Shown: positions 2,005 to 62,475 of the stretch, one piece after another
Layout: every line of letters starts with the position of its first letter
Numbering within the stretch: the stretch's first letter is position 1
Assembly (NCBI RefSeq): GCF_050320075.1
Contig: NZ_CP190018.1
DNA length: 64,000 bases
Source: Escherichia coli
GTDB lineage: Bacteria; Pseudomonadota; Gammaproteobacteria; Enterobacterales; Enterobacteriaceae
Strand: one strand, 5' to 3'
Translations under genes and position numbers: made by a program
Notes under the pieces: generated by a model
Told to the model about the DNA's origin: nothing
The model's input: only the letters and a program-made list of their open reading frames with translations
Databases searched by the model: none

Positions 2005-3982
<1,978 letters not shown>

Positions 3983-5440: not shown

Positions 5441-6388
5441 ATGCGTGTGTTATTGGCACCGATGGAGGGAGTGCTTGACTCTCTGGTGCGTGAATTGCTG
5501 ACCGAAGTTAACGACTACGATCTGTGCATCACCGAGTTTGTCCGCGTGGTGGATCAACTGCTGCCGGTAAAAGTCTTTCATCGCATTTGCCCTGAGCTAC
5601 AAAACGCCAGCCGGACACCATCTGGTACGCTGGTGCGCGTGCAGTTGTTAGGTCAGTTCCCACAATGGCTGGCAGAGAACGCCGCCCGTGCGGTGGAGTT
5701 AGGTTCCTGGGGCGTGGATCTCAATTGCGGCTGCCCGTCGAAAACGGTTAACGGTAGCGGCGGCGGGGCGACGTTACTCAAAGATCCTGAACTCATCTAC
5801 CAGGGTGCAAAAGCGATGCGTGAAGCTGTACCGGCGCATTTGCCCGTCAGCGTGAAAGTGCGTCTGGGCTGGGACAGCGGTGAGAAGAAATTTGAAATCG
5901 CCGATGCGGTTCAACAGGCTGGCGCTACGGAGCTGGTGGTGCATGGGCGGACGAAAGAGCAGGGTTACCGCGCGGAGCATATTGACTGGCAGGCGATTGG
6001 CGATATTCGCCAGCGGCTGAATATTCCGGTGATTGCCAACGGTGAAATCTGGGACTGGCAGAGCGCGCAACAATGCATGGCGATCAGCGGCTGCGACGCA
6101 GTGATGATTGGTCGCGGGGCGCTCAATATTCCCAACCTGAGCCGGGTGGTAAAATATAACGAACCGCGAATGCCGTGGCCGGAGGTGGTTGCTTTGCTGC
6201 AAAAATATACCCGTCTGGAAAAGCAGGGCGATACCGGGTTATATCACGTTGCGCGGATTAAACAGTGGTTGAGTTATTTGCGTAAAGAATACGATGAAGC
6301 AACGGAATTATTTCAGCATGTTCGGGTGTTGAATAATTCCCCTGATATTGCAAGGGCTATTCAGGCAATTGATATCGAGAAACTCTAA
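5441..6388 (+). CDS. dusC: tRNA-dihydrouridine(16) synthase DusC
   Basis: 315-aa product from ATG 5441 [33 protein letters not shown]... (FMN-dependent Dus fold); the longer ORF from 5375 is rejected as start. Confidence 0.9.
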
Positions 6389-6760
6389 AAAACCATAGTG
6401 ATGTTTTTTGACAATGTGTTAGCTCTTTATCAATAGGCCGCACGGTTGTTTGGTGGCGTCAAAATTGCCGAGGCGTTCCCTGAAGGCCGGGGCAGCCCAC
6501 ATGGATGTGGGCTGAGGGCGCGTTTTACAGGGATGTTACCTCGCGCCCGACCCGGTAGCCGTAAGGGATAAGCCGAGGGCACCGCGCAGCGGCGATTTTG
6601 TTCGCCAGAGCCCGGGGGTGCAGGGGGCGGCGGCGATTGGCCGCCCCCTGCGCGCTCCTTGCGCCAGTGATTATATGAAGCAATGCACATGACAGGAGCG
6701 CAACAGGATGAGAGACTGAAATATTCTCGTTATTTTCGGACCTGATGACATTAATTAATT

Positions 6761-6844
6761 TTAAAATATCATCTTAAATACGCCAGTCACCACCAGTAGC
6801 CCAATCAGGAAAATAATCAATACAGCCCAGAGTATAATTTTCAT
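6761..6844 (-). CDS. yohP: 27-aa small membrane protein YohP (not in supplied ORF track)
   Basis: Hand translation of reverse strand: MKIILWAVLIIFLIGLLVVTGVFKMIF, single hydrophobic helix, ATG 6842-6844, TAA stop. Confidence 0.75.
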   Translation of the reverse strand: MKIILWAVLIIFLIGLLVVTGVFKMIF

Positions 6845-7067
6845 TGGCGTTCCTTTATTTGTGAGTGCTGAATAAGTATAGGAAAAAACGAAGCCCTTTG
6901 CCGTTATCCATAAACGATTAAGATAAATCGGAAGATATCATTCACTTAGTGTATATTTTTCTGGATATGTCGTTTTATTGCCACTGATGTATTGCCACGC
7001 GAAACTAAAAAATATATCGCAACACACGGTAATCTCCGCGCACCTTTTCTTACCTGATTATTCCCCC

Positions 7068-8504
7068 ATGAATCGTGATTCCTTTTATCCAGCCATCGCC
7101 TGTTTTCCGCTGTTACTGATGCTGGCCGGGTGTGCGCCTATGCATGAAACCCGCCAGGCGTTAAGCCAGCAAACGCCCGCTGCACAAGTTGACACCGCAT
7201 TACCCACGGCGCTGAAAAATGGTTGGCCAGACAGCCAATGGTGGCTGGAGTATCACGATAATCAACTCACTTCCTTAATTAACAATGCACTACAGAACGC
7301 ACCGGATATGCAGGTGGCTGAACAGCGCATTCAGCTAGCTGAAGCCCAGGCGAAGGCAGTTGCCACTCAGGATGGTCCGCAGATCGACTTTTCGGCGGAT
7401 ATGGAGCGGCAAAAAATGTCGGCAGAAGGCTTAATGGGGCCGTTTGCTCTGAACGATCCGGCCGCAGGTACGACCGGCCCGTGGTACACCAACGGTACTT
7501 TTGGCTTAACGGCGGGCTGGCATCTCGATATCTGGGGAAAGAATCGGGCGGAGGTTACTGCCCGCCTGGGTACGGTTAAAGCACGGGCGGCGGAACGCGA
7601 GCAAACCCGCCAATTGCTGGCTGGCAGCGTAGCCCGCCTGTACTGGGAGTGGCAAACCCAGGCGGCGTTAAACACTGTCTTGCAGCAAATAGAAAAAGAG
7701 CAGAACACCATTATCGCGACCGATCGCCAGCTATATCAGAACGGGATTACTTCTTCAGTTGAAGGTGTGGAAACCGATATTAATGCCAGCAAAACCCGGC
7801 AGCAGCTCAACGATGTCGCGGGGAAAATGAAAATTATTGAGGCACGGTTAAGCGCACTTACAAATAACCAGACAAAGTCATTGAAGCTTAAACCGGTCGC
7901 GTTGCCGAAAGTGGCAAGCCAGCTTCCTGATGAACTGGGGTACTCCTTACTGGCCCGGCGGGCAGATTTGCAGGCGGCGCACTGGTACGTTGAGTCATCG
8001 CTAAGCACCATTGATGCGGCAAAAGCGGCATTTTATCCTGACATCAACCTGATGGCCTTCCTGCAACAGGATGCGTTGCACTTAAGCGATCTGTTCCGTC
8101 ATTCCGCGCAGCAAATGGGCGTTACGGCAGGCCTGACGCTACCCATTTTCGATAGTGGTCGTCTTAACGCCAATCTCGATATCGCAAAAGCCGAAAGCAA
8201 CTTGTCTATCGCCAGCTACAACAAAGCGGTGGTTGAAGCGGTGAATGACGTGGCGCGGGCAGCCAGTCAGGTTCAGACACTGGCGGAGAAAAACCAGCAT
8301 CAGGCGCAAATTGAGCGCGATGCCTTGCGTGTGGTAGGTCTTGCGCAGGCGCGCTTTAACGCGGGCATCATTGCGGGTTCCCGCGTCAGCGAAGCCAGAA
8401 TCCCCGCGCTGCGTGAGCGGGCCAATGGCCTGTTATTGCAAGGGCAGTGGCTGGATGCCTCCATTCAACTCACTGGTGCGTTGGGCGGGGGTTACAAACG
8501 CTGA
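7068..8504 (+). CDS. mdtQ: Outer-membrane efflux lipoprotein (OMF/TolC-like), intact
   Basis: ATG 7068 gives MNRDSFYPAIACFPLLLMLAGC lipobox signal followed by ~460 aa of coiled-coil/beta-barrel OMF sequence without interruption. Confidence 0.8.
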   Translation: MNRDSFYPAIACFPLLLMLAGCAPMHETRQALSQQTPAAQVDTALPTALKNGWPDSQWWLEYHDNQLTSLINNALQNAPDMQVAEQRIQLAEAQAKAVATQDGPQIDFSADMERQKMSAEGLMGPFALNDPAAGTTGPWYTNGTFGLTAGWHLDIWGKNRAEVTARLGTVKARAAEREQTRQLLAGSVARLYWEWQTQAALNTVLQQIEKEQNTIIATDRQLYQNGITSSVEGVETDINASKTRQQLNDVAGKMKIIEARLSALTNNQTKSLKLKPVALPKVASQLPDELGYSLLARRADLQAAHWYVESSLSTIDAAKAAFYPDINLMAFLQQDALHLSDLFRHSAQQMGVTAGLTLPIFDSGRLNANLDIAKAESNLSIASYNKAVVEAVNDVARAASQVQTLAEKNQHQAQIERDALRVVGLAQARFNAGIIAGSRVSEARIPALRERANGLLLQGQWLDASIQLTGALGGGYKR

Positions 8505-16168: not shown

Positions 16169-16203
16169 GTAGGCCGGATAAGGCGCTCGCGCCGCATCCG
16201 GCA
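16169..16203. repeat. REP element
   Basis: GTAGGCCGGATAAGGCGCTCGCGCCGCATCCGGCA matches REP consensus. Confidence 0.7.
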
Positions 16204-62390: not shown

Positions 62391-62475
62391 TACGCCTTAT
62401 ACGAACAGCACTACCCCGTATGACGGAAAAGGCGTTTACGTCGCATCCGGCATAAAAACACGCGCACTTTGCTAC

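Follow-up and report, generated by a model that had tools for sequence, protein, structure and literature searches.

The spacer between the convergent genes dusC and yohP, located in a 64,000-nucleotide stretch of the Escherichia coli chromosome (hereafter the window), is the already described repeat element TRIP1c, also known as RRS-dusC. Considered together with the published work, our analysis favors, with a probability of roughly three in four, a reading in which this element acts as a polymerase-blocking fold of the lagging-strand template that leaves gaps, in which the fold is the property under selection, and in which the module descends from the arm of a transposon. The spacer feature itself adds nothing new, and what we report are modestly new leads on a known system: conservation of the fold, occurrence in further genera, a mobile form, variability of the G-tract and the frequency of an inverted allele, none of which we found in the two papers describing the element (PMC10888264; PMC10592627).

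The window is E. coli K-12 MG1655, with a 321-nt query spanning the spacer being 100% identical in K-12 records, and since its coordinates map onto both TRIP1c and RRS-dusC, the identity of the element follows. The annotation places dusC (5441-6388, + strand, stop codon ending at 6388) and yohP (6761-6844, − strand) convergently on the spacer, as a first-pass annotation made from the sequence had it, and the interval marked there coincides almost exactly with TRIP1c. The NC_000913.3 annotation itself holds zero repeat features in the dusC-yohP spacer. The TRIP1 family was named by Rudd in 1999 and re-surveyed by Li et al. in 2024, who placed TRIP1c about 43 bp after yohI/dusC, listed five TRIP1 loci, observed TRIP1a and TRIP1c in either orientation, predicted stable folds, described rearrangements between copies and left the function unassigned; every E. 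coli copy was found 38-96 bp past a stop codon (PMC10888264). The two full copies were described as Replication Risk Sequences (RRS) by Pham, Wood, Dunbar, Cox and Goodman in 2023/24 (PMC10592627).

The characteristics of this element that can be read from sequence were found: the sequence and position of TRIP1c (beginning 43 nt past the dusC stop and ending about 60 nt from the yohP stop, with its G-rich “sense” strand on the + strand of the window), a G-quadruplex (G4) motif on the strand that would be the lagging template, and two partner copies. One of these, TRIP1a, is located between lysO and aqpZ (94% identity over 272 nt; L007 2519-2789), and the other, TRIP1b, is a short copy between putP and efeU (L011 1856-1994), which kept both ends and is missing the central hairpins. 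K-12 carries two full-length copies and one internally deleted copy. The suspicion that the spacer belongs to a repeat family was thus correct, but the family is not an unclassified one, having been known as TRIP1 since 1999 and as RRS since 2023/24, and it is apparently neither boxC nor RIP, the two families which had been suggested as possible matches. Further copies are present in the genome, but within the 64-kb window none was found besides TRIP1c. As for composition, the spacer is indeed GC-rich (0.63-0.72 across 6450-6699 in 100-nt windows, against 0.33-0.39 in the flanks), but the strong GC skew that had also been claimed amounts, if skew is taken strictly, to only +0.10 to +0.18, which is no greater than within dusC.

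The TRIP1 module is a conserved structured nucleic acid whose fold is kept by compensatory changes. Both strands fold better than their shuffled versions, with z-scores of -5.0 (+) and -5.6 (−) for RNA, and -6.8 (+) and -5.5 (−) for DNA, where 0 of 200 shuffles were as good. Copies were gathered by BLAST (Escherichia species, Pseudocitrobacter, Klebsiella and Citrobacter) and by a degenerate pattern scan of metagenomes; the 148 copies obtained fell into 38 clusters at 94% identity, and 29 representatives were aligned. The RNAalifold consensus of these 29 copies has 54 pairs, 28 of them with compensatory changes. Covariation was assessed on a structure checked by hand (53 pairs, 10 helices), with controls in which the partner of each pair was slid by 1-3 columns. 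Standard pairing was observed in 97.5% of cells in the structure and in 37-42% in the slid controls, double changes occurred at 27 pairs (192 cells) versus 2-7 pairs (4-24 cells), and none of 500 column shuffles reached the observed covariation values. The long-range stem covaries as well, and because its strands lie about 100 nt apart, this would not be explicable by correction of a local palindrome. As far as structure is concerned, the earlier proposal was well founded, and the two hairpins named in it are exact, with 10-nt arms (6493-6502 and 6505-6514) and 12-nt arms (6620-6631 and 6640-6651), respectively, both 100% complementary.

Single parts of the fold (Table 1) differ in what they tell. 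In the long-range stem P1, G6470 and A6471 form one half of a tandem G.A/A.G, which is invariant in 29/29 copies while the neighbouring pairs covary. Similarly, the G-N-A loop of the mini-hairpin P4 is kept in 27/29 copies while its stem covaries. P2 pairs are nearly invariant and thus uninformative for or against structure. Invariance of the H1 loop CATGGATG among metagenome copies was forced by the search pattern, and the loop is preserved also in the copies found by BLAST; the H2 loop has the consensus CA-N-GGA-Y-G across the alignment. In H3, all compensatory changes are of the GC->AU type, so that the G run remains on the + strand; strain Ecol_867, for instance, has CGGC>AGGA paired with GCCG>TCCT. 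In the position of H4, a second subfamily bears ACGTTCAC/GTGAACG, which means that the entire helix has been swapped.

As to the nature of the folded molecule, RNA of the G-rich + strand is more stable than that of the − strand in 28/29 copies, while the 12 G.U versus 11 A.C cells in the helices give no wobble signal for RNA and leave the strand assignment uninformative. The conserved asymmetric features, i.e., the GGA loops, the tandem G.A, the G-N-A loop and the G run in the 5' arm of H3, are all located on the G-rich strand. Tandem sheared G.A pairs and G-N-A mini-hairpins of the d(GCGAAGC) type are classic unusually stable DNA structures, and the whole set of these features suits a role in single-stranded DNA (ssDNA) at least as well as a role in RNA. 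The dusC-yohP copy of Escherichia sp. MOD1-EC7003 (L026), which is of the K-12 TRIP1c type, has lost hairpin 1 by a clean 26-nt deletion; this natural mutant could be used for testing which parts of the module matter.

The G-tract motif, which is the reported polymerase stall site, coincides with the 12-bp hairpin H3. It has a G4Hunter score of 1.84 in K-12 and contains four G2+ tracts, and copies from Escherichia, Klebsiella and Pseudocitrobacter score 1.76-1.92, as do most of the metagenome copies resembling them. A canonical G-quadruplex (four G3+ tracts with loops of 1-7 nt) was found in 0/29 copies on either strand. The + strand of the window corresponds to the minus strand of NC_000913, where the dusC locus lies at 2.229 Mb; with oriC at about 3.92 Mb and dif at about 1.59 Mb, the + strand would be the lagging-strand template in K-12. 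This agrees with the published assignment of the GGGGGTGCAGGGGGCGGCGG strand to the lagging-strand template at both RRS loci (PMC10592627). According to the same work, this strand blocks Pol I, II and IV in vitro, and yields of M13 clones suggest an about 2-fold drop of Pol III replication with the G4 on the template strand. RecA and SSB build up on up to 2 kb of lagging-strand ssDNA beside each RRS, also beside RRS moved to three ectopic sites, and the peak is absent upon inversion of the RRS. Strains lacking both RRS at their native sites could be obtained only if they had a 200-kb amplification or an ectopic or inverted RRS, and deleting or inverting both RRS altered the genome-wide supercoiling map (PMC10592627).

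The published experiments point to the following course of events. When the duplex is opened at the fork, the G-rich lagging template would quickly fold into a compact structure that the lagging-strand polymerase could not copy; the polymerase would release and restart downstream, leaving a transient gap of single-stranded DNA, up to about 2 kb in length, to be occupied by SSB and RecA. The authors of the RRS work propose that such a gap works as a swivel, releasing topological stress at the margins of the terminus region (PMC10592627). We infer that the selected property would be not the G-quadruplex alone but the whole multi-hairpin fold, comprising the long-range stem with the tandem G.A, two GGA-loop hairpins, the G-N-A mini-hairpin, the 12-bp G/C hairpin and the closing hairpin. 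The module might have started as one arm of a transposon, small and non-autonomous, that had IS4-type ends and inserted into terminator hairpins, with Escherichia retaining immobile copies at fixed sites.

Table 1. Features of the dusC-yohP spacer (window coordinates).
Feature	Position	Strand	Basis and remarks
TRIP1c	6432..6704	+	NC_000913.3 2229122-2229394 per Rudd 1999 / Li 2024 (PMC10888264), mapped via L009 = NC_000913.3 2229000-2234000
RRS-dusC	6446..6669	+	Segment that Pham et al. removed; 58-281 bp downstream of dusC (PMC10592627, methods)
Weaker homology common to copies, 5' of the published boundary (TTTTTGACAATGTGTTAGCTCTTTATCAATAG)	6403..6431	+	Alignment of six copies with flanks
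G-tract motif GGGGGTGCAGGGGGCGGCGG, reported G-quadruplex former and polymerase-blocking site	6614..6633	+	Exact single match in the window; PMC10592627
P1, 5' strand (CAAAATTG CCGAGGC), long-range stem	6460..6474	+	Alignment columns 18-32 covary with 133-162, e.g., CG:13, UA:13, UG:3
P1, 3' strand (GCCGAGG ... CGATTTTG), encloses mini-hairpin P4	6572..6600	+	Covariation
Mini-hairpin P4 (CCGC-GCA-GCGG, G-N-A three-base loop)	6582-6592	+	Compensatory changes in 3/4 pairs
P2, 5' strand (GGCCGGG), pairs with 6551-6560 (CCCGGTAGCC), closes the two-hairpin core	6485..6491	+	Consensus fold
Hairpin H1 (CAGCCCACA-TGGA-TGTGGGCTG), loop CATGGATG	6493..6514	+	Compensatory changes in 6/8 pairs, including CG->GC flips
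Hairpin H2 (GGGCGCG...CGCGCCC), apical loop ACAGGGATGT	6516..6548	+	Apical pair AU in 15 copies, GC in 14
Hairpin H3, perfect 12-bp G/C stem (GCAGGGGGCGGC / GCCGCCCCCTGC), overlaps the G-tract motif	6620..6651	+	6/8 counted pairs compensatory
Hairpin H4 (CGCTCCT ... AGGAGCG), variable interior of about 35 nt	6653..6700	+	Covariation

The transposon part of this reading comes from relatives outside Escherichia. The family is present in Klebsiella, Citrobacter and Pseudocitrobacter, beside other genes, and in metagenomes, so that at least four genera are represented in the alignment. Flanks of the 148 copies form about 45 groups, which approximates the number of distinct loci, and at 93 of about 140 copy-bearing loci, not one of the four E. 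coli contexts is close by. Those loci that do have such a context are all at least 88% identical to the K-12 genes, and hence belong to Escherichia; in the sample examined, conserved positioning holds within Escherichia only. One Klebsiella chromosome bears the module in 13 places, and in Klebsiella pneumoniae (L029 1055-1860) the module sits in each of two tandem units about 400 bp long, with a repetitive extragenic palindromic (REP) sequence inside the repeated unit; L032 ends in the start of another tandem unit.

Elements of 633-722 bp, found in Pseudocitrobacter and in a metagenome, look like mobile forms of the family. The 633-bp unit of Pseudocitrobacter occurs at two unrelated loci, pntB/uspE and mdlB/glnK, with 96% identity between them. 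Its 18-bp ends, TAATGCTGGTCAGTTAAG, agree with those of K-12 IS4 at 16-17 of 18-19 positions, and similar ends were found on the 722-bp metagenome element and on a truncated fourth element. IS4-like terminal inverted repeats of 18 bp are present in L021, L016 and L099, and in L133 at the right end only, its left end being cut by the contig. Flanking direct repeats are 13 bp long and perfect in L021, 12 bp with 2 mismatches in L099 and 11 bp with 3 mismatches in L016; at 2 of the 3 sites they are located within terminator-like hairpins, with A/T runs alongside. Target duplications of IS4 are 11-13 bp long. Both arms of these elements, read outward, align column for column with the module, its 3' end toward the terminal repeat, which makes the mobile relatives head-to-head module dimers bounded by IS4-type ends. 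Compared with E. coli copies, the Pseudocitrobacter element matches from its position 280/299 to 595 (634-bp query), i.e., over one arm. An insertion preference for terminators would explain why E. coli copies lie so close behind stop codons. No autonomous partner carrying the module was found. We propose, as a tentative idea to which we give slightly less than even odds, that the conditionally essential RRS/TRIP1 copies of E. coli are domesticated arms belonging to a family of IS4-type miniature inverted-repeat transposable elements (MITEs) that has spread across Enterobacteriaceae, and that selection keeps a compact single-strand fold, not the G-quadruplex.

Some copies of the module have C4 antisense RNA matches about 100-600 nt away (74 and 65 bits, above threshold; L135 3871-4057 and L065 8474-8662), accompanied by near-threshold isrK and c4-a1b1 matches, which suggests that these copies adjoin prophage-type immunity regions.

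Within E. coli, a megablast search of 5426 complete genomes revealed the element in 1-8 places per genome, with a median of three; in strains other than K-12, a copy also lies between alx and sstT. Copies at both the dusC-yohP and the aqpZ-lysO sites occur in opposite orientations in different strains. The K-12 allele of the dusC spacer is present in about 3357 records and also in Escherichia sp. MOD1-EC7003, and the inverted allele occurs also in E. whittamii and Escherichia sp. E1V33; both orientation alleles are old. They differ by 7-11%, and the inverted one is nearer to TRIP1a (93-96%) than to K-12 TRIP1c (89-93%). Given this proximity to TRIP1a and the lack of clean orientation-specific types, there is no support for regarding the two alleles as alternative dimer-element arms. 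As ways to an in-place flip, we considered independent insertions in both directions, loss of alternative dimer arms, and recombination between short flanking inverted repeats.

Several observations concern the neighborhood of these alleles. The inverted allele (L003 2777-2830, with equivalents in L018, L020 and L022) changes the C-terminus of DusC from ...IEKL* to ...IDKLR*, and a perfect 13-bp hairpin (GATAAGCTGCGAT / ATCGCAGCTTATC) spans the dusC stop codon. The nearby mdtQ gene (7069-8504 of the window), annotated as a frameshifted pseudogene in K-12, is intact in strains with the inverted spacer allele (L003, L006). In two metagenome contigs, efeU and aqpZ, respectively, are joined to yohP/mdtQ across the module; these are recombinants between TRIP1 copies, of the kind described by Li et al. 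(PMC10888264). The K-12 alx-sstT spacer (L008 2047-2444), which is the TRIP1d slot in other strains, carries ...CTGTTCCCCTCACCCTAACCCTCTCCCC..., a tail found also directly 3' of GTGAACGGAAC-type modules in metagenome copies; what is left in this spacer may be the remnant of another module subfamily, a second one, joined to a boxC-like repeat.

A number of points weigh against the reading that we favor. On one hand, the gap function is challenged by natural variation: the dusC copy is inverted in 2000/5426 complete E. coli genomes (37%), and strain E69 has both copies inverted relative to the flanking genes, which is the configuration that gave no gap peak in the laboratory. As an orientation without a gap peak is common in nature, gap formation at dusC cannot be a universal requirement. 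Moreover, the replication-gap function comes from the work of a single laboratory, in its preprint version (PMC10592627). The G-tract is less constant than the fold, since other subfamilies retain every helix with G4Hunter scores of about 0.9-1.5; a strong G-tract or G4 is not conserved family-wide, while G-richness of the H3 arm is kept. Covariation cannot separate ssDNA from RNA. On the other hand, the annotated copies outside Escherichia are all in contexts unlike those in E. coli, which suits a position-defined device poorly. The proposed origin is not visible in the K-12 copy itself: IS4-type terminal repeats have 0 matches in the window at up to 3 mismatches, and the best tails of E. coli copies need 5-7 edits of 18, which is near chance. 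Without a recognisable terminal repeat in the E. coli copies, the transposon origin of the K-12 copy would follow from homology only. The sequence CGGACCTGATGACATTA at 6737-6753, tried as a relic of a terminal repeat, was rejected as it needs 7 edits of 18.

A decayed selfish element, that is, a one-arm relic of an IS4-type miniature transposon whose structure was selected for transposition or propagation and which has no host function here, is in our opinion unlikely, albeit the least unlikely of the alternatives. It would agree with the terminal repeats and target duplications of the relatives, with the scatter of 148 copies over about 45 groups of flanks, with the copy numbers in E. coli (1-8 places) and in the Klebsiella chromosome (13), with the tandem units in Klebsiella, and with the damaged copies, i.e., TRIP1b, which is internally deleted yet has both ends, and the MOD1-EC7003 copy without hairpin 1. 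It does not agree with the fact that E. whittamii, E. albertii and the cryptic Escherichia clades have copies at the same two loci, nor with compensatory double changes inside one dusC-site allele class (Ecol_867/E1V33 versus E69/E. whittamii), and neither terminal inverted repeats nor a target site duplication are recognisable in E. coli copies. Conditional essentiality and effects on topology have also been published (PMC10592627). Another alternative, and the most improbable of those considered, is a bidirectional RNA 3'-end element for dusC and yohP, in which the hairpins would shield 3' ends against exonucleases or pause RNA polymerase like REP sequences and bacterial interspersed mosaic elements (BIMEs). 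The distances to both stop codons given above speak for it, as do the position of all E. coli copies 38-96 bp after a stop codon (PMC10888264), the lack of an intrinsic terminator for both dusC and yohP, the strong folding of both strands, and the insertion of related mobile copies in terminator hairpins. Yet a U-tract is absent, strand-specific conserved motifs would be unnecessary for such a role, and the position after genes is equally well explained by an insertion preference of the transposon.

The conserved fold might also be that of an RNA, as had been suspected at first. A TwoAYGGAY-like RNA, produced as part of the dusC/yohP 3' untranslated region or from its own promoter, could sequester CsrA with its GGA loops or alter mRNA stability. 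The Rfam model TwoAYGGAY (RF01731, clan CL00106) aligns over its full length at 6446-6597 (+) with 30.9 bits (E 0.0098), and other copies score 29.9-33.5 bits, but each of these scores is under the gathering score of 43, and the covariance scan of the spacer gave only this sub-threshold match. Loop 1 reads AUGGAU, but loop 2 of K-12 reads AGGGAU rather than AYGGAY, and the family-wide form of loop 2 is A-N-GGA-Y. The consensus for CsrA binding obtained by systematic evolution of ligands by exponential enrichment (SELEX) is RUACARGGAUGU; the loops ACAUGGAUGU and UACAGGGAUGU are similar to it, and a third conserved single-stranded AGG(G/A)AUAA is present. The greater stability of the + strand RNA in 28/29 copies is in favor of this idea, but the wobble signal is lacking, and tandem G.A and G-N-A loops are, as mentioned, classic stable DNA motifs too. 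A role as a CsrA sponge has been proposed for TwoAYGGAY, whose stem contains tandem GAs (PMC4333381); our element has its invariant tandem GA in parallel. The half-life of dusC mRNA is 3.25 min in the wild type and 1.74 min in a csrA mutant (log2 -0.90), a difference flagged as not significant, although the fall is among the larger drops listed (PMC5694010, supplementary data 2). In contrast, dusC and ybjE are marked “No” in the columns for crosslinking and immunoprecipitation sequencing (CLIP-seq), Edwards, Kulkarni and Sowa of the CsrA study, which covers one growth condition and gives the last three as previous target lists, and the CsrA supplements examined give zero peak coordinates in the region. 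Neither a promoter nor a terminator was found in the element, its orientation relative to neighbouring genes varies between strains and loci, and the function demonstrated experimentally is at the DNA level (PMC10592627). The proposal of a structured noncoding RNA thus found no support, and we consider it improbable, a little more so than the selfish relic. If TRIP1 copies are domesticated transposon arms kept for a single-strand fold, the Rfam “TwoAYGGAY RNA” motif might be a DNA-level structure of this sort as well.

Other candidate features of the spacer were rejected. A small RNA (sRNA) of the CsrB/CsrC type sequestering CsrA has in its disfavor the lack of a CLIP peak for dusC/ybjE and of a promoter or terminator. 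A genomic SELEX listing for RpoD contains only the ordinary dusC and ybjE promoters, and the TTGACA at 6409, inspected by eye as a -35 hexamer, lacks an acceptable -10 hexamer, and other copies do not conserve it. The 86-aa open reading frame (ORF) at 6430-6690 (−) was rightly dismissed at first inspection as an antisense artefact: it has no Pfam match, GC-rich DNA leaves long stop-free stretches on both strands in related copies, and frame-shifting single-base gaps in the alignment preclude a common reading frame. A small ORF after a Shine-Dalgarno-like AGGAG and ATG (6694-6712) has 3 codons in K-12, and other copies either lack it or differ there. A type I toxin leader and a RyfA-type RNA were rejected since neither an Rfam match nor a conserved ORF was found, and Rfam matches to AgvB, miRNA and snoRNA models were ascribed to chance. 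It was also correct that the spacer has neither a REP consensus nor an intrinsic terminator: GCC(G/T)GATGCG(A/G)CG has 16 matches in the window and 0 within 6389-6760, and there are 0 sites with a GC-rich hairpin and a U-tract at 6300-6900 on either strand. Exact REP consensus sequences at 3078-3090, 16190-16202 and 62439-62451 are ordinary REP/BIME, unrelated to TRIP1c.

These side results touch an open question, namely why a sequence that endangers replication is retained. Were the module a tamed arm of a transposon, the fixed sites of its copies in Escherichia would reflect a secondary adaptation, not an ancient design. If it is the hairpin fold that is conserved, and not the G-tract, then the proposed G4 mechanism needs re-testing. 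The 2000 of 5426 genomes with the orientation that gave no gap peak would mean either that gap formation at dusC is dispensable or that these strains compensate otherwise. Should TRIP1 copies be domesticated IS4-type arms, the inverted alleles and the relatives with a weak G-tract would be ready-made tests of the replication-gap model.

Comparison with known systems places the element as follows. With TRIP1/RRS it shares coordinates, sequence, G-tract motif, the partner copy near lysO and the partial copy near putP, with no difference; our analysis extends that system to other genera, loci and a mobile form, and it questions the G4 as its conserved feature. It resembles TwoAYGGAY (RF01731) in having two adjacent GGA-loop hairpins within an enclosing stem, an additional outer stem and tandem G.A, but differs in its scores (about 30-33.5 versus 43 bits), in loop 2 (A-N-GGA-Y), in its extra 3' hairpins and in its documented effect at the DNA level. 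IS4-family MITEs have ends TAATGCC(A/G)(G/A)TCAGTTAAG and duplications of 11-13 bp; the Pseudocitrobacter and metagenome relatives share such ends and duplications, and their arms are the module, whereas the K-12 copy has a single arm only, with no recognisable terminal repeat or duplication. Like REP/BIME, TRIP1 is a GC-rich hairpin-forming intergenic repeat just past genes, implicated in chromosome topology and able to seed rearrangements, but it has no REP consensus, its unit is about 10 times longer, and E. coli has 2-5 copies of it as opposed to hundreds. Finally, the pilE G4 of Neisseria gonorrhoeae has been cited as the other bacterial case of G4-triggered gap formation (PMC10592627). 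That sequence is a short canonical G4, which needs an sRNA transcript and serves antigenic variation, while TRIP1 has no motif of four G3+ tracts and its G-tracts are embedded in a large conserved hairpin fold.

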